From an uncultured delta proteobacterium (GTDB taxonomy: Bacteria > Desulfobacterota > Desulfobacteria > Desulfobacterales > Desulfosalsimonadaceae): a stretch of 64,000 nt of DNA. The notes under the pieces were generated by a model. That model was not told the origin of the DNA, made no database searches, and saw only the letters and a list, made by a program, of their open reading frames with translations. Position 1 is the stretch's first letter. Each line of letters starts with the position of its first letter. Made by a program: the position numbers and the translations under genes. The DNA is taken from positions 704,001 to 768,000 of the forward strand of contig CAWGYD010000001.1 in the NCBI GenBank assembly GCA_963826785.1. Reading direction: 5' to 3'. Below are positions 42,122 to 50,011 of this stretch, in pieces.

Positions 42122-43375
42122 TCAACCCGTTTTTTTTTCTTTCAGGCGGATAATCACCGGCACCCCCGCGGTTTCGCACAGGCTGTCTGCCGCCCGATGA
42201 ATCAGCCGTTCCAATCCTTTTATTTCATCTGAAAATATCTGGTCGGAAACCGGAATCCACACTTCCAGGCAGCTGCGGTCATCCTGGCGGATGATGCCGC
42301 AGCGGGCGGTTTCCGGATCAATGCCGAGCAGCTGGCGCAGGCTGCTCCGGATCTGCTGCTCATGGACATTGACGCCGTCAATTGTGAACATGTCATCCGT
42401 CCGCTCCCCCGCCCATTCGATCCGGGCCAGGTCCCTGCCGCAGGGACAGGGTTGATCCATCCGCCGGGCCCGGTCTCCTGTTTTAAATCGTATCAGGGGA
42501 AAGGCACGTGTGGTCAGGGAGGTCAGGACCAGTTGGCCCCATTGTCCTTCCGGCAGGACATCTCCGGTGCCGGGATCGACGATTTCGGCCAGGAAATGGT
42601 CCTCATGGATGTGGAGCCCCCTGTGGTGTTCGCACTCGAATGCGATGGCCGGCCCGGGCACCTCTGAAAGTCCGTAGTGCATCCACACGGAAACCCGGAA
42701 CTGCGCTTCCATCATTTCGCGCGTCTGTTCATCTATGGCCTCTCCGGCAAGAATCAGGGTTTTTAAATGAAGCATGTCGAGATCCATCCGGTTTGCGCTG
42801 ATGTGCTCCAGGAGATGGCGTGCGGAGGCCGGGGTGGTGACCAGGACGGAGGTCTTGTAGTCCCGCAGGACCATCAGTTTTTTTTCTGTGGAAAGGGGGG
42901 TATTGGGGATGACGCCGGCTTCAATGCGTTCGGCCCCGTCCTTGTAGTCCCGGCCCCAGTTGGCCAGCCCGGGATTGAAGCTGATCTGCAGGATGTCATG
43001 GGGGGTGACGTTGGCGGCGGTGAGCGACCGGGCCAGGATCGATTTCCATGAAGAAAGGTCCTGCAGGGTGTACCCGCTGACGGTGGGATTGCGGGTGGTC
43101 CCGGGGGCGGTGTGGATGCGCACGATATCCCGCAGGGGAACGGCAAACAGGTCATAGGGGTAATTTTCGCTTAAGTGTTCCCGTTCCATGAAGGGGAGGG
43201 AGGCGATGTCGGACAGGTGCTCGATCCCGGAGGGGTCGATGCGCATTTCCATCAACCGATGCTGATGAAACGGGACATTGCGGTAGGCCCGGTTCAGGGT
43301 GCTCTGCAGCCGCTCCAGCTGCAGCTGCTGTTTTTCCTCCAGGTCCAGATCTAAAAAACCGTCATCTTTCATCAT
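42122..43375 (-). CDS. Divergent phenylacetate-CoA ligase-like protein (degenerate P-loop, shortened C-terminus)
   Basis: Collinear with PaaK (ENYPYDLFAVP, YGLSEVPGP, EDHFLAEI, FPLIRFKTGD) but has HTAPGTTRNP and no terminal GKA motif. Confidence 0.85.
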   Translation of the reverse strand: MMKDDGFLDLDLEEKQQLQLERLQSTLNRAYRNVPFHQHRLMEMRIDPSGIEHLSDIASLPFMEREHLSENYPYDLFAVPLRDIVRIHTAPGTTRNPTVSGYTLQDLSSWKSILARSLTAANVTPHDILQISFNPGLANWGRDYKDGAERIEAGVIPNTPLSTEKKLMVLRDYKTSVLVTTPASARHLLEHISANRMDLDMLHLKTLILAGEAIDEQTREMMEAQFRVSVWMHYGLSEVPGPAIAFECEHHRGLHIHEDHFLAEIVDPGTGDVLPEGQWGQLVLTSLTTRAFPLIRFKTGDRARRMDQPCPCGRDLARIEWAGERTDDMFTIDGVNVHEQQIRSSLRQLLGIDPETARCGIIRQDDRSCLEVWIPVSDQIFSDEIKGLERLIHRAADSLCETAGVPVIIRLKEKKTG

Positions 43376-44102
43376 CAAAATCTCCGTAATCCTTGCCCAG
43401 ATAAGCCCGCTTGACATCTTTGTCCGCCAGGAGGTCGGCGGCAGGCCCCTGCAGCACGATGCTGCCGGTTTCAAACACGTATCCCCGGTCGGCGATCTGC
43501 AGGGCCGCCTGGGCGTTCTGCTCCACCAGAAGGACGGTCATGCCCCCGGACCGAAGGGTGGATATGGTTTTCAGTATGGTTTCCACGATAAGCGGGGCCA
43601 GCCCCATGGAGGGTTCATCCAGCAGCAGCAGTTTCGGTCTGGCCATCAGGGCCCGGCCGATGGCCAGCATCTGCTGCTCGCCGCCCGAGAGCGTCCCGGC
43701 CGCCTGCCCCGCGCGTTCCCTGAGTTTGGGAAACAGGGCCAGGACATTTTCGAGCTGGTCGTCGACCGCCCGGCGCTCCCGGCTGCGGTACAGGATGTAG
43801 GCGCCAAGCTTCAGGTTGTCCATGACGCTCAACGGCGGAAATATCCAACGGCCTTCCGGTACCAGGCTGATCCCCTTTTTCACCACCGCCGGCGGCTCCA
43901 TGCCTTTGAGGGTATTGTCTTCGTAGCGGATTTCCCCTTCCCAGTCCGGCAGAAGGCCGCATATGGCATTTAAAAGCGTACTTTTGCCGGATCCGTTGGC
44001 GCCGATCAGGGAGATGATCTCCCCCTTCTTGACGGAAAGGCTCACGCCTTTGACCGCCATGATCTTGCCGTAGTAGCATTTGAGATTTCGGATGCGAAGC
44101 AT
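43362..44102 (-). CDS. livF: HAAT-family ABC transporter ATP-binding protein (LivF-like)
   Basis: GANGSGKS, LSGGEQQM, LDEPSMGLAP, EQNA. Confidence 0.93.
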   Translation of the reverse strand: MLRIRNLKCYYGKIMAVKGVSLSVKKGEIISLIGANGSGKSTLLNAICGLLPDWEGEIRYEDNTLKGMEPPAVVKKGISLVPEGRWIFPPLSVMDNLKLGAYILYRSRERRAVDDQLENVLALFPKLRERAGQAAGTLSGGEQQMLAIGRALMARPKLLLLDEPSMGLAPLIVETILKTISTLRSGGMTVLLVEQNAQAALQIADRGYVFETGSIVLQGPAADLLADKDVKRAYLGKDYGDFDDER

Positions 44103-44110
44103 GGCTTAAG

Positions 44111-44884
44111 CTATTTTTTCGTTCCCAGATATGCCGCCATCACGGCCTCATTTTCCTGAATTTGCCGGGGCGGACCTTCCGCGATCTTTTTTCCCTGGTC
44201 CAGGACGACGATGGTGTCTGAAATATCCATGGTCAGGCTCATGTCATGCTCCACCAGCAGGATGGTCACGCCGCTTTCGCGGATTTTTCGGATCAGGCCG
44301 CCCAGTTTCCGGGTTTCCACCATGTTCAGCCCGGCGGCCGGTTCGTCCAGCAGCAGCAGTTCGGGCTTCGATGCCATGGCACGGGCAACCTCCAGAAGCC
44401 GCTGCCAGCCGAAGGGAAGATCGCCGCTTCTTTTATCGGCGTGGTCGGCCAGTCCGACAAAGTCCAGGTATTCGAGCGCTTTTTTCCGGGACCGGCGTTC
44501 CTCCCGGGCCACACCGGGGGGGCGCAGGATGCTTCCCCACATGCCGCAGCGGGTTTTCGTATGCTGGCCCACCAGGACGTTTTCCAGCACGGTCATGCTT
44601 TCAAACAGCTCCACGTTCTGGAAGGTCCTGGCGATGCCCAGCACAACCAGTTCATAGACTTTTTTCCGGTTGATGAGCAGTCCGTTTAAATGAATGGTGC
44701 CCTGATCAACCGGGAAGATGCCGGTAATCAGGTTAAACAGGGTGGTTTTGCCCGCACCGTTGGGGCCGATCAGCCCGGTAACGGAACCCCGGGCAATTGC
44801 AAAACTGACATCCGTCAGCGCGGCAACCCCGCCAAATGATTTGCTGACACGGCCGACGTTTAGAATTTGCGCATCAGGCGGCAT
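44111..44884 (-). CDS. livG: HAAT-family ABC transporter ATP-binding protein (LivG-like)
   Basis: GPNGAGKTT, GIARTFQN, LDEPAAG, VEHDM. Confidence 0.93.
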   Translation of the reverse strand: MPPDAQILNVGRVSKSFGGVAALTDVSFAIARGSVTGLIGPNGAGKTTLFNLITGIFPVDQGTIHLNGLLINRKKVYELVVLGIARTFQNVELFESMTVLENVLVGQHTKTRCGMWGSILRPPGVAREERRSRKKALEYLDFVGLADHADKRSGDLPFGWQRLLEVARAMASKPELLLLDEPAAGLNMVETRKLGGLIRKIRESGVTILLVEHDMSLTMDISDTIVVLDQGKKIAEGPPRQIQENEAVMAAYLGTKK

Positions 44885-48209: not shown

Positions 48210-48641
48210 CTACAACGTATACAGGTTGGCGCCGTTGATCACGGATATGTTGTTGGCGGACAACACGCGGATGGCCTCGTCGGTCTGGTCGAACCTGAAG
48301 ATCATGATGGCGTTGTCCCCGCTCTGCCGGACAAACGCGTACATATATTCGACATTGATCCCGGAATTTTTGAGGGTTTCCAGAATGTTGTGGAGCCCGC
48401 CGGGGCGGTCGCTGACTTCGACGGCCACCACCTTGGTTTTTCCCACGGTAAAGCCTTCCTTCTTCAGGGCGGCTTCGGCCCTGGCATTGTCATCGACGAT
48501 CAGCCGGAGCACCCCGAAATCGGAAGTGTCCGCAAGCGCCAGTGCCCGGATGTTCACGCCGGCCTGCGCAAGAATGCCGGTGACTTCGGACAGGCGCCCG
48601 GCCCTGTTTTCGAGAAAAATGGAGATTTGTTCCGCTTGCAT
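48210..48641 (-). CDS. Tandem ACT-domain protein (amino-acid binding)
   Basis: QISIFLENRAGRL, NIRALALADTSDFGVLR, DRPGGL, NVEYMYAF; AAGGAGG RBS. Confidence 0.92.
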   Translation of the reverse strand: MQAEQISIFLENRAGRLSEVTGILAQAGVNIRALALADTSDFGVLRLIVDDNARAEAALKKEGFTVGKTKVVAVEVSDRPGGLHNILETLKNSGINVEYMYAFVRQSGDNAIMIFRFDQTDEAIRVLSANNISVINGANLYTL

Positions 48642-48709
48642 GAATCCCTCCTTGGCTGAAAAATTCTGTGATGGCCTGCGGCCGCTTGCTTCATACAAAA
48701 GGTGCCACG

Positions 48710-50011
48710 TCAGATCTTGCGATTATCGATCACCCGGGCGGCTTTCCCTTCGCTTCGGGCGATGGTCTTGGGTTCAACCAGTTTGATTCTGGCGGAGACG
48801 CCCAGGGTTTCCTTGATGTCATACTCGATGCGCTTCTCGAAATCCTGCAGTTTCTTGACTTCGTCCGAGAACAGATGTTCCCCCACCTCCACCCGCACGG
48901 TGAGCGTGTCGAGATTGTCATGGCGGTCCACGATAATCTGGTAATGGGGTTCCACTCCCTCGATCTGCATGAGCACGGATTCAATCTGGGACGGAAAGAC
49001 ATTGACCCCCCGGATGATGAGCATGTCATCGGTGCGGCCGCTGACCTTGTCCATCCGGACCAGGGTCCTGCCGCAGACACAGGGCTCCGGATTGAGGACG
49101 GTAATGTCCCGGGTGCGGTAGCGGATCACCGGGAATGCCTCCTTGGTCAGAGAGGTGATCACCAGTTCCCCCTTTTCACCATAGGGGAGGGGGGTTCCGG
49201 TAACCGGATCGATAATCTCCGGCAGAAAATGATCCTCGAACATGTGCAGACCCCGTTTGGCCTCATGGCATTCCACGGAGACGCCCGGGCCGATCACTTC
49301 GCTGAGCCCGTAGATATCGATGGCATTCATGTGAAGCTTGCGTTCGATCTCCGCACGCATATCCTCGGACCAGGGTTCGGCCCCGAAAATGCCGCACTTG
49401 AATTTCAGGTCCGCAAAGGAAACCCCCATCTCATCGGCCGCTTCGGCCAGGTGGAGGGAATAGGAGGGCGTGGCGGTGAGCACGGTGGGGCCGAAATCCT
49501 TCATGATGATCACCTGGCGCTTGGTATTGCCGCCGGACACGGGAATGACCGAGGCGCCGAGTCTTTCAGCGCCGTAATGCACCCCTAGTCCGCCGGTGAA
49601 CAGCCCGTAGCCATAGGCATTGTGGATGATATCCCCCCGGGTTGCGCCGCCCGAGGAAAGGGCCCTTGCCATGAGCTCGGCCCAGGTATTGATGTCGCGG
49701 GCCGTGTAGCCCACCACCGTCGGCTGCCCGGTGGTGCCGGAGGAAGCATGGATGCGGACCACGTTGTCCATGGGAACGGCGAACATGCCATAGGGGTAGT
49801 TGTCTCTCAGGTCCTGCTTGGTGGTGAAGGGGACGCTTTTAAGATCGCCCAGGGTCCGGATGTCGCCTGGACGGATGCCCCCCTTTTCGAACTGCTTCCG
49901 ATAGAAGGGCACGGTGGCGTAAACCCGGGACAAAGTCGCCTGCAGGCGCTTTAATTGTATGGCCTCAAGGGCTTCCCTGGGCATGGTTTCGTATTCGAGA
50001 TTGAAAATCAT
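48710..50011 (-). CDS. paaK: Phenylacetate-CoA ligase
   Basis: [75 protein letters not shown]. Confidence 0.95.

Follow-up and report, generated by a model that had tools for sequence, protein, structure and literature searches.

A conserved Phe-codon leader precedes a putative operon for aromatic-acid import and CoA activation in an uncultured member of the Desulfosalsimonadaceae

Introduction

Amino-acid operons of Enterobacteria, such as those behind pheL-pheA, pheM-pheST and the his and trp leaders (Rfam Phe_leader), are controlled at the level of transcription by attenuators with a leader peptide.

A second pathway to aromatic amino acids, which uses aryl acids via indolepyruvate:ferredoxin oxidoreductase (IOR, encoded by iorAB), is known from Methanococcus maripaludis (work cited in PMC4162585), and rumen cultures are able to form Phe from phenylacetate (cited in PMC7356843). 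Among binding proteins (SBPs) for aromatic acids, excerpts of PMC10374108 place 4FB4 in type B-III, describe IadK2 as indole-3-acetate-specific with no binding of phenylacetate, and supply key residues including R199 of IadK2. Related Desulfobacterales grow on phenylacetate, and in Desulfococcus multivorans, according to excerpts of PMC5109826, two PadJ genes (dmul_C22990/23060) occur at a distance of seven locus tags from each other, genes 54% and 35% identical to PadJ EbA5402 occur, and the proteins formed on phenylacetate are a TRAP system and other ligases.

Here we describe a locus in which a leader with Phe codons stands ahead of ligase and importer genes; the window, i.e., the whole stretch of DNA analysed, comprises 64,000 nucleotides. 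No published description of such a leader-paaK unit was found in the literature.

Results

The minus strand between 42122 and 50011 carries eight co-directional genes (ORF calls, Pfam and NCBIfam), and the unit proposed by an earlier sequence-only reading was recovered with all its members and limits:

48710..50011, minus strand: paaK1, full-length PaaK-type aryl-acid-CoA ligase (Pfam, NCBIfam, PDB 2y27)
48210..48641, minus strand: stand-alone ACT-pair protein of 143 aa (PF19571, PDB 2f06)
46944..48113, minus strand: exported SBP, of aromatic-acid (B-III) type by sequence likeness (Peripla_BP_6)
45855..46730, minus strand: livH-like ABC permease (BPD_transp_2 129 bits; NF008011 at 117.7 of the 379 bits required)
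44874..45836, minus strand: livM-like ABC permease (BPD_transp_2 145.7 bits; NF008450 at 169.1 of the 366 bits required)
44111..44884, minus strand: livG-like ABC ATPase (ABC_tran and BCA_ABC_TP_C; NF008449 at 265.3 of the 362 bits required)
43362..44102, minus strand: livF-like ABC ATPase (ABC_tran 114 bits; NF008626 at 258.1 of the 441 bits required)
42122..43375 (likely start), minus strand: paaK2, a divergent member of the PaaK family that lacks the Lys-bearing C-terminal tail (Pfam, NCBIfam)

The identical order of eight genes was present in 35 of the 80 loci fetched with the SBP, most of the others ending at contig edges, and is therefore not due to chance. A paralogous cluster, ACT-SBP-livHMGF-paaK3, lies on contig C10 of the same genome. 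PaaK1 contains the AMP-binding and AMP-binding_C_2 domains, matches PDB 2y27 over residues 7-432 (E = 1.5e-151), and reaches 619.7 bits with TIGR02155, slightly below the equivalog cut-off of 646.3; its C-terminal tail is invariant across 56 orthologs. PaaK2 showed only the AMP-binding N-domain (TIGR02155, 297.9 bits), and its short end (..RLKEK..) is common to the 6 orthologs that passed the filter. A PaaK-family ligase gene directly follows livF in nearly every locus, even where paaK1 is missing.

The SBP (Peripla_BP_6, 185.8 bits; N-terminus resembling a signal peptide) has its best solved relatives in 7ylt and the 3tx6/4f8j/4fb4 group (E 3e-48 to 1e-38), whereas LivJ/LivK entries matched at E 4e-18 or weaker and the LivJ/K model gave 92.4 bits (cut-off 477). 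We identified 7ylt as IadK2 from the search listing and the entry title, the code not appearing in the main text of PMC10374108 as excerpted. By sequence, the SBP thus groups with aromatic-acid binders rather than with LivJ/LivK, which agrees with the earlier suggestion that the "branched-chain amino acid" transporter probably carries phenylacetate or Phe. However, the Arg used by IadK2 (R199) and by the R. palustris SBP is Ala here in the HMMER alignment, so that the predicted carboxylate contact is without its expected Arg.

The ACT-pair protein (PF19571, 97.1 bits; PDB 2f06, E = 2.5e-28) is listed as an ORF starting at 48698, the likely start being the Met at 48641, and shows 78% mean column identity across 56 orthologs. 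A complex prediction for this protein with PaaK1 scored 0.49, the best of three controls 0.00; at least 97% of contacts agreed between runs, and partner pLDDT was at least 86. Among 157 solved complexes, 116 reach the mark applied to such predictions, as do 2 of 215 mismatched pairs; with scores of 0.60 or less, only 18 of the 157 reach it, together with both of the passing mismatches. The model lends weak support to ACT-PaaK1 binding. The earlier idea that the ACT protein may exert feedback control on PaaK is likewise weakly supported by this prediction.

Upstream of paaK1 we recognized the following elements:

50277..50306, minus strand: promoter-like TTGACA - 18 nt - TATGCC, read by eye, just upstream of the leader
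50048..50235, minus strand: leader region
50179..50235, minus strand: leader peptide ORF MNRMNTGFSISGNGFFFQ-stop, with three consecutive Phe codons
50168..50179, minus strand: segment A (GUCUUCCCAUGG), beginning 5 nt past the final Phe codon, with the stop codon reaching into it
50119..50130, minus strand: segment B (CCAUGGGGAGAC), partner of A or C in the helix alignment
50097..50106, minus strand: segment C (CCCCAUGGUU), partner of B, or of D as antiterminator
50048..50085, minus strand: intrinsic terminator D:E (GGGCCGUGGGGUC / GACCGCACGGCCC) and U7

The ORF (50235-50179) has 18 codons and ends in GFFFQ-stop. TTGACA recurs at a comparable site in two other loci (L012 and L036); the promoter-like element is a weak part of the picture because a scan for consensus promoters did not list it. 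The leader folds with z = -4.12, and none of 200 shuffled sequences folded equally well. In an alignment of 16 leaders, four mutually exclusive helices were kept: A:B (12 pairs, 99.5% of cells paired, 2 pairs changed on both sides), B:C (9 pairs, 91%, 3 changed), C:D (10 pairs, 88.8%, 1 changed) and D:E (11 pairs, 89.7%, 4 changed), compared with 36-53% of cells paired in controls with slid segments. Segment A follows the last Phe codon at a constant distance of 5 nt in all 16 sequences, and in each of them the stop codon of the leader lies on or just after A. A scan of the window with Rfam 15 at gathering score returned just a tRNA and no leader family; with the leader as query at E <= 10, the best match (E = 0.056) was noise.

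The leader motif (match at 50119-50179) occurs once in its own genome; among 301 genomes of the order, 35 contain it, and the control gave no matches. In other Desulfobacterales, a paaK1 ortholog lies directly downstream of the motif in 28 of 29 loci; the 29th was rejected as a true leader, being a chance match inside a coding region. Homologous Phe-rich leader ORFs precede paaK1 in 16 of 30 loci of relatives, and in a wider sample of the order a script read the ORF in 23 of 28 paaK1 loci. The leader is patchy: the other 14 of the 30 loci are without it, a crotonase gene often abutting paaK1 there, and by our own reading a Phe-rich ORF is present in only about 40 of 75 regions upstream of SBP loci. 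Phe is extremely abundant in leader peptides of other families as well (e.g., MRFRFFYFGFFSFLDGFFFRKSIHGPAR). In one genome (G122), ligase and importer are split onto different contigs, each with its own copy of the leader (L147 and L180, identical in sequence, were counted once). The Phe-responsive leader of the sequence-only reading is therefore real as a sequence feature, consisting of a Phe-codon ORF, alternative hairpins and a terminator, conserved in relatives. It appears to be a conserved Phe-codon attenuator, the geometry of which predicts read-through on Phe limitation, and the operon is likely on when phenylalanine is short because this switch stands ahead of all eight genes.

Elsewhere in the genome, the search for iorAB suggested earlier was successful: iorA (760 bits, cut-off 650.9) and the adjacent iorB were found outside the window, on contig C6. 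Among 41 relatives, 40 possess iorA, including all 36 with a paaK match at E <= 1e-100; since IOR is nearly universal, this co-occurrence carries little weight. In five relatives (G025, G027, G028, G033 and G035), iorA directly adjoins a paaK paralog. No Phe leader was detected at iorAB, either in its sequence as read or in the scans for such leaders, so the proposed pathway is only half co-regulated. The prephenate dehydratase (PDT) route, also to be checked, is present as a fusion gene of DAHP synthase (DAHPS), PDT and ACT with its own leader (..NSWRFFFSFRSVHPVV-stop, then antiterminator/terminator), conserved in 19 of 20 loci. Salvage would thus supplement de novo synthesis rather than being the sole source of Phe, and the Phe-codon attenuator of the fusion gene places both units in one Phe-limitation regulon.

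The earlier observation that ring-degradation genes are lacking in the window was borne out, at the sensitivity used, when another 40 ORFs were scanned with NCBIfam and Pfam. The genome was searched for Oah, Had and PaaA/C: the best matches to Oah (102 bits, cut-off 464) and Had (97.5 bits, cut-off 338.65) fell short, and PaaA/C were not found; because the genome is only 87.8% complete, we call ring-pathway genes "not found" rather than "absent". The gene just upstream encodes a generic crotonase, conserved in relatives; its identification as PaaF or PaaG was rejected (258 bits vs. 371 and 187 vs. 345).

Discussion

We consider it fairly probable that this Phe-attenuated operon imports an aromatic acid, most likely phenylacetate, for activation with CoA and carboxylation by IorAB to yield Phe; if so, it rebuilds phenylalanine from scavenged phenylacetate rather than degrading it. 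With charged tRNA-Phe in short supply, stalling of the ribosome at the Phe codons would leave A free, A:B and C:D would form, the terminator would be blocked, and the operon would likely be transcribed beyond it, whereas an unstalled ribosome would run onto A, B:C would pair, and D:E would end transcription. A ribosome on the last Phe codon would already overlap the beginning of A, so this read-through logic needs stalling at earlier Phe codons. The SBP and the LivHMGF-like importer would take up the aryl acid, PaaK1 would convert it to arylacetyl-CoA, and IorAB would carboxylate this reductively to phenylpyruvate, from which an aminotransferase would form Phe. More speculatively, the ACT-pair protein may sense an amino acid, likely Phe, and modulate PaaK1, and PaaK2, without the C-terminal tail, may have a different or auxiliary role.

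It seems unlikely that the Phe-regulated salvage concerns one or more other aromatic acids (phenylpyruvate, phenyllactate, 4-hydroxyphenylacetate or indole-3-acetate), with PaaK1 and PaaK2 covering different acids. The indole-3-acetate specificity of the nearest solved SBP (PMC10374108, as excerpted), the two divergent ligases, the paralogous cluster on C10, and the Tyr and Trp codons that also occur in some leader peptides would suit this view, but the regulatory codons are overwhelmingly Phe, PaaK1 is near authentic PaaK by its matches to 2y27 and TIGR02155, and phenylpyruvate would need no CoA ligase.

Distinctly unlikely is an importer of Phe or other aromatic amino acids that works when Phe is short, with the ligases serving another purpose. 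A Phe-starvation switch would be sensible on a Phe importer, the transporter is of the LIV/HAAT type, the SBP lacks the Arg usual in binders of aromatic acids, and in G122 the importer alone keeps the leader; yet E-values of the SBP are lower by some 20-30 orders of magnitude with aromatic-acid binders than with LivJ/LivK, its score stays far below the LivJ/K cut-off, a PaaK-family ligase gene follows livF nearly everywhere, with or without paaK1, and the leader is also kept by paaK1 alone.

A catabolic role, in which phenylacetate is taken up and activated to serve as carbon source and the leader is irrelevant or reversed (on with plentiful Phe), is very improbable: it would accord with PaaK family membership and the usual PadJ/PaaK annotation, with growth of related Desulfobacterales on phenylacetate, with the conserved upstream crotonase, and with the five-segment leader, in which a ribosome masking A favours termination, so that the logic depends on the exact stalling site, but Oah, Had and PaaA/C were not found in this genome, the crotonase is generic and below the PaaF/PaaG cut-offs, the leader stop codon never falls before A, which resembles classical attenuators, the biosynthetic DAHPS-PDT gene likewise stands behind a Phe-codon leader of this peptide pattern, and D. 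multivorans forms other proteins in response to phenylacetate (PMC5109826, as excerpted). We take the D. multivorans genes similar to PadJ as orthologs of the ligases of this operon, and infer that the pair dmul_C22990/23060 represents this operon in that species. The operon is probably not catabolic, and the anabolic role put forward in the sequence-only reading is supported, all of its in silico checks having come out in its favour.

Compared with known systems, the leader shares with enterobacterial attenuators a short ORF with a run of regulating codons and, before the first structural gene, hairpins that exclude one another together with an intrinsic terminator. It differs from them in having five segments (A to E), in the position of the Phe codons upstream of A and not inside the first segment, and in preceding ligase and importer genes usually labelled catabolic, and it matches no Rfam 15 family. 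PaaK1 resembles the catabolic ligases (Aromatoleum PadJ; Burkholderia PaaK, PDB 2y27/2y4o) as a full-length member by sequence, although its score is slightly below the PaaK equivalog cut-off, a ring pathway to follow it (Oah, Had, PaaA/C) was not found here, and regulation appears to be by Phe codons. Like this SBP, its best solved relatives, the B-III SBPs (Variovorax IadK2 and the R. palustris Rpa1789-type protein, 4FB4), are paired with LIV-type ABC permeases and ATPases, but the Arg needed in IadK2 for IAA binding is replaced by Ala. ACT_8 ACT-pair proteins (PDB 2f06, "conserved hypothetical protein") likewise have two ACT domains, as in the 143 aa here; in this genome, each of two clusters has an ACT gene beside those for a PaaK-type ligase and an importer. 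With the IOR route of M. maripaludis and rumen bacteria, as described in the citing papers, the proposed pathway shares its steps (arylacetyl-CoA, reductive carboxylation and transamination) and a parallel de novo route, but here iorAB lies elsewhere, without a leader, and one Phe-attenuated operon is proposed to equip the route with an ABC importer of its own, a second ligase and an ACT-pair protein.

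Gene content and organization of the operon

The sequence-only reading had described eight co-directional genes at 42122-50011, and ORFs, Pfam and NCBIfam matches confirmed them, on the minus strand. Together with their upstream neighbour they are, in the direction of transcription:

50461-51252, minus strand: crotonase (short-chain enoyl-CoA hydratase), directly upstream of leader and paaK1; generic, not PaaF or PaaG
48710-50011, minus strand: paaK1, full-length PaaK-type ligase
48210-48641, minus strand: stand-alone ACT-pair protein; the ORF as listed starts at 48698, and the Pfam and PDB matches start at a Met 19 codons further on
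46944-48113, minus strand: substrate-binding protein (SBP), Peripla_BP_6; exported, with a signal-like N-terminus
between SBP and paaK2, minus strand: remainder of the transporter, two BPD_transp_2 permeases and two LIV-type ABC ATPases
42122-43375, minus strand: paaK2, second, divergent PaaK-family gene

The crotonase gene is kept as the upstream neighbour of leader and paaK1 in many Desulfobacterales, and it abuts paaK1 in several relatives without a leader. Orthologs of the SBP (60-73% identity) occur in records of Desulfobacterales, Syntrophobacteraceae and Desulfarculales, which sets the genome of the window within Desulfobacterales. The complete order paaK1-ACT-SBP-livH-livM-livG-livF-paaK2 is present in 35 of the 80 SBP loci fetched, most of the others being broken off by contig ends. 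Seven loci, including those of Desulfobacter latus and Desulfogranum marinum, hold SBP-livHMGF-paaK2 only, paaK2 is missing from seven, and the ACT gene is placed after paaK2 in two (L138 and L145).

The claim that genes for ring degradation are absent from the window also holds, as no aromatic ring-pathway gene was found among the scanned ORFs. The other products encoded there are FabK-like proteins, a TPP enzyme, GAPDH, MprF, CFA synthase, an RND metal efflux system, a hydrogenase-4-like membrane complex, a penicillin-amidase-family protein, a sigma factor and MutS. The three FabK-like ORFs (enoyl-ACP reductase II family; 497-1594 on the plus strand, 5783-6943 and 13622-14701 on the minus strand) score 224-250 bits, all well under the equivalog cut-off of 453. 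Hydrogenase-4/Mrp-like membrane subunits and NuoB/NuoD-like proteins at 17178-25083 (plus strand) resemble an energy-converting hydrogenase-type complex, and a tRNA gene at 52730-52803 (minus strand; 72.9 bits) is the sole Rfam match of the window at gathering score. The penicillin-amidase-family gene (36898-39480, plus strand; PF01804, 670.7 bits) lies 2.6 kb past paaK2. Enzymes of this family can free phenylacetate from phenylacetylated compounds; such a gene was seen near the operon in one of the 80 loci, at the locus edge, the fetched flanks mostly stopping short of that position. Outside the window, contig C10 of the same genome carries a paralogous, leaderless cluster ACT2-SBP2-livH/M/G/F-paaK3 (L154:8538-15273), in which SBP2 is divided into two ORFs (14344-14820 and 13554-14324) by a frameshift or a sequencing error; PaaK3 is 47-48% identical to PaaK1.

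A Phe-codon leader precedes paaK1

The Phe-responsive leader proposed from the sequence proved real as sequence: the 449-nt spacer between crotonase gene and paaK1 contains a Phe-codon ORF, alternative helices and a terminator, arranged as follows:

50235-50179, minus strand: leader ORF, encoding MNRMNTGFSISGNGFFFQ, with an FFF run
after the leader ORF, minus strand: segment A, GUCUUCCCAUGG
3' of A, minus strand: segment B, CCAUGGGGAGAC
3' of B, minus strand: segment C, CCCCAUGGUU
50048-50085, minus strand: segments D and E, the terminator hairpin, a stem followed by U7 and ending at 50048

A leader stretch of 211 nt folds better than all of 200 shuffled sequences (z = -4.12). Sixteen recognisable homologous leaders, out of 30 paaK1 loci of relatives, were aligned, and all four helices are supported by the alignment, as listed here:

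Helices of the paaK leader in the alignment of 16 leaders
A:B, 12 pairs, 99.5% of cells paired, 2 pairs changed on both sides
B:C, 9 pairs, 91% of cells paired, 3 pairs changed on both sides
C:D, 10 pairs, 88.8% of cells paired, 1 pair changed on both sides
D:E, 11 pairs, 89.7% of cells paired, 4 pairs changed on both sides

When the partners were slid by 1-3 columns as a control, just 36-53% of cells paired. The leader peptides of relatives contain up to 10 Phe per 28 codons, and their motif SSHGS is RNA segment A translated in frame. The stop codon stands before A in some relatives and after A in others, the nucleotides being unchanged: it starts 2 nt before A in five of the 16 sequences and 22-31 nt past the start of A in the other 11, while the distance from the end of the last Phe codon to A is 5 nt in every one. 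Three features that mark an attenuator are present, namely a Phe-codon ORF, an intrinsic terminator before the first gene and mutually exclusive helices backed by comparison.

The Rfam model Phe_leader (RF01859, as we take its accession to be) gave no match at gathering score in the window or at E <= 10 in 49950-50470, where the Rfam matches on the leader were noise. A scan for promoter and terminator consensus sequences listed neither the leader terminator, because its stem has one mismatch that the simple rule disallows, nor a promoter before the leader, so that the promoter is a call made by eye. As a structure, the attenuator is nearly certain, and it is very likely that it senses Phe.

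A sister leader on the Phe-synthesis gene

A genome-wide scan for short ORFs that carry at least three Phe codons in a row and have a terminator after them found the paaK leader and a site preceding the single prephenate dehydratase gene of the genome. This gene, outside the window at C5:198288-200431 (L156:6288-8431; minus strand), encodes a protein of 625 aa that is, according to Pfam, a DAHP synthase-prephenate dehydratase-ACT fusion, and its DAHP synthase and prephenate dehydratase parts both score over their NCBIfam cut-offs. The sequence-only reading had asked whether the route through prephenate dehydratase is complete or missing in the genome; the de novo route was found, in the form of this fusion, and the organism is therefore no evident Phe auxotroph.

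The leader peptide of the fusion gene reads (TTG)IPTTLTNNFKFNSWRFFFSFRSVHPVV-stop and ends in ..NSWRFFFSFRSVHPVV. It is followed by the RNA elements GCGUCCAUCCGG, its complement CCCCGGGUGGAC and then GUCCACCCGGGG-U6, with a second terminator downstream in tandem; the first RNA element stops just short of the stop codon. The peptide end ..GRFFFGFRSVHPAV and the RNA elements are kept in 19 of 20 fusion-gene loci (own genome and relatives), the sole exception being L161, where the filter used did not find the leader. From their sequences, the Phe-synthesis gene of the organism and the paaK operon thus appear to be under Phe-codon attenuators of one design. Of the arguments for a role of the operon in Phe supply, this shared design is the strongest.

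Proposed mechanism of the switch

Two alternative sets of helices would be open to the segments, A:B with C:D, or B:C with D:E, each excluding the other. If a ribosome is held at the first Phe codons, A would stay unoccupied, A:B would form and C would pair with D; with C:D formed there would be no terminator, and transcription would continue into paaK1. An unheld ribosome would move onto A, or rest at the stop codon where this overlaps A; B would then pair with C, and the D:E hairpin would end transcription. The model requires stalling at the earlier Phe codons, because the last one is so near to A that a ribosome on it would mask the start of A. The reversed logic, in which the operon would be on in Phe excess, was set aside in view of the position of the stop codon, the spacing and the sister leader on a biosynthetic gene.

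Distribution of the leader

The leader motif GTCTNYYCRTG-N(30-60)-CCAYGGGNRGAC occurs once in the genome of the window and in 35 of the 301 genomes that were sampled from the order, whereas the reversed control pattern gave 0 matches. In 28 of 29 loci of other genomes, a paaK1 ortholog (74.5-82.9% identity) lies 150-550 nt downstream of the motif. In the remaining locus, L044, the motif falls within coding sequence and was rejected as fortuitous. Leader peptides in other families can be strikingly rich in Phe, e.g., MRFRFFYFGFFSFLDGFFFRKSIHGPAR and MNRYFHYFGFFGFFGGFLFRRSAHGPAR, and in the loci of Syntrophobacteraceae and Desulfarculales, where the RNA motif is missing, Phe-rich ORFs are still present before paaK1, e.g., MTFRFHYFCFFGFWGGFYFSKPACGAK.

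The distribution is patchy. Among the 30 paaK1 loci of relatives, whose orthologs are 75-85% identical, 14 have no leader; by our reading, a convincing Phe-rich ORF is present in about 40 of the 75 upstream regions at SBP loci, and loci whose SBP shares the highest identity with that of the window are mostly without a leader. Leader and full operon are both present in the cultivable relative Desulfatibacillum alkenivorans DSM 16219 (L123). In one relative (G122) the unit is split between different contigs, with one leader before paaK1 and a second copy, with the peptide MLFSVFYFCLFSFLDGFFFKKSIHGAVL, before SBP-livHMGF; the two copies are at L180:1000-1250 (L147 and L180 are the same sequence and were counted once) and G122:C1:452350-452414. 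The two copies indicate that the ligase and importer halves each keep a Phe switch when they are apart.

The importer and its binding protein

All five transporter components score under the NCBIfam cut-offs (LivJ/H/M/G/F), and the name "liv" therefore denotes an architecture and not a substrate. The SBP scores 92.4 bits against the LivJ/LivK model NF011933 (cut-off 477), and LivJ/LivK entries of the PDB match it at 4e-18 or weaker. Its nearest solved relative is 7ylt (E = 3.2e-48), followed by 3tx6/4f8j/4fb4, 3uk0, 4jb0, 3ukj, 3sg0 and 4dqd (1e-45 to 1e-38). The top seven PDB sequences include aromatic-acid binders, of class B-III according to PMC10374108. We identify 7ylt as Variovorax IadK2 by a literature listing and the title of the PDB entry, the code not being found in the main text of PMC10374108. 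As described in that paper, IadK2 is an SBP specific for indole-3-acetate (IAA) that does not bind phenylacetate; it is grouped in subcluster B-III, "for aromatic acids uptake", its nearest structural relative is a Rhodopseudomonas palustris SBP with caffeic acid (4FB4), and its Arg199, moderately conserved in B-III, is needed for IAA binding (PMC10374108). In a HMMER alignment, Arg199, which we assume to contact the carboxylate, and its counterpart Arg in the R. palustris protein correspond to an Ala in the SBP of the window (..VTFGASDTDM..), and its placement in B-III is accordingly one of overall likeness.

The ligases and the ACT protein

PaaK1 is close to authentic PaaK by sequence: it matches PDB 2y27 over its full length (E = 1.5e-151) and narrowly misses the TIGR02155 cut-off of 646.3 with 619.7 bits, PaaK2 (297.9 bits) and PaaK3 (433.5 bits) both scoring under it. 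It has the N-terminal domain, the AMP-binding_C_2 domain and a Lys-bearing tail, invariant in 56 orthologs, whose Lys is presumably the catalytic one. PaaK2 matches the N-terminal domain only and ends before this tail, as do all six of its orthologs that passed the filter.

The ACT protein matches Pfam ACT_8 (PF19571) with 97.1 bits (gathering score 23.5) and PDB 2f06, a "conserved hypothetical protein"; mean column identity over 56 orthologs is 78%. Complex prediction, with each partner given as a 56-row alignment, scored PaaK1-ACT at 0.49 and the best of three controls at 0.00, in a range (0.60 or under) where only 18 of 157 solved complexes pass, together with both of the mismatched pairs that pass; overall, 116 of the 157 solved complexes pass, and so do 2 of 215 mismatched pairs. 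The PaaK1-ACT runs agreed in at least 97% of contacts, with a partner pLDDT of at least 86. The prediction lends weak support to the hypothesis that the ACT protein binds PaaK1.

IorAB and aromatic pathways in the genome and its relatives

The sequence-only reading had linked phenylacetate activation to indolepyruvate:ferredoxin oxidoreductase (IOR, IorAB), and iorA is indeed encoded in the genome (C6:73995-75845; TIGR03336, 760.4 bits, cut-off 650.9), with iorB adjoining it (PF01558, 133.6 bits). The sequence upstream of iorA, a motif search and the genome-wide Phe-ORF scan revealed no Phe leader there, and hence no sign of co-regulation with the ligase. Across 41 relatives, iorA is present in 40, including all 36 with a paaK match at E <= 1e-100; being nearly universal, it makes this co-occurrence weak evidence. 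In five relatives (G025, G027, G028, G033 and G035) iorA is the immediate neighbour of a more distant paaK, and in G039 a gap of 8 kb separates it from the paaK1 ortholog. A tblastn search of IorA and IorB against the 80 SBP loci gave no match, and within 8 kb iorAB is thus unlinked to the operon.

Of the markers of ring pathways, Oah, Had and PaaA/PaaC were searched for in the genome, which is 87.8% complete: Oah (best 102 bits, cut-off 464.45) and Had (best 97.5 bits, cut-off 338.65) stayed far under their cut-offs and PaaA/PaaC had zero matches.

Precedents exist for the route itself. Methanococcus maripaludis has a second aromatic amino acid pathway from aryl acids via IOR (as cited in PMC4162585), and phenylacetate can be converted to Phe in rumen cultures (as cited in PMC7356843). 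Desulfococcus multivorans has two PadJ genes, dmul_C22990 and dmul_C23060, which share 54% and 35% identity with Aromatoleum PadJ according to a proteogenomic study (PMC5109826); seven locus tags apart, they would fit the operon studied here. The proteins reported there as formed specifically on phenylacetate or phenylpyruvate are others, namely a TRAP transporter, IorA3B3 and the ligases Dmul_C24830 and FadD4, and one supplementary file of that paper has no entry for the operon's locus tags (PMC5109826).

Discussion

On the sequence evidence, anabolic salvage of phenylacetate to Phe is the best explanation of the operon and probably the right one. In anaerobes, paaK and padJ genes are usually taken to signal the breakdown of aromatic compounds. 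In this genome, as in many Desulfobacterales, the paaK that is conserved best stands beside an importer and behind a switch that very likely senses Phe shortage, and the same kind of switch stands before the organism's own Phe-synthesis gene. The "catabolic" annotation thereby becomes a testable anabolic one. A literature search found no paper on a Phe leader before paaK, nor one that treats the operon as anabolic. More tentatively, sulfate-reducing Desulfobacterota might possess an unrecognised Phe-attenuated module in which phenylacetate, taken up by the ABC importer, is converted to Phe by PaaK and IorAB, the ACT-pair protein acting as an allosteric Phe sensor on the ligase.

If this is true, many "phenylacetate degradation" genes in the genomes and metagenomes of anaerobes would be amino-acid salvage genes, and it would be explained how sediment anaerobes recycle a common fermentation product and so save what the shikimate route costs. 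The reading would also give a function to a widespread family of ACT-pair proteins and add a new, easily recognised family of Phe attenuators to RNA catalogues.

The his and pheA leaders embody classical attenuation logic. The paaK leader would follow the same logic as the pheA leader, and likewise that of the his leader with one helix fewer. The operon would thus combine leader-peptide attenuation with IOR-dependent aryl-acid salvage, both of kinds already known.
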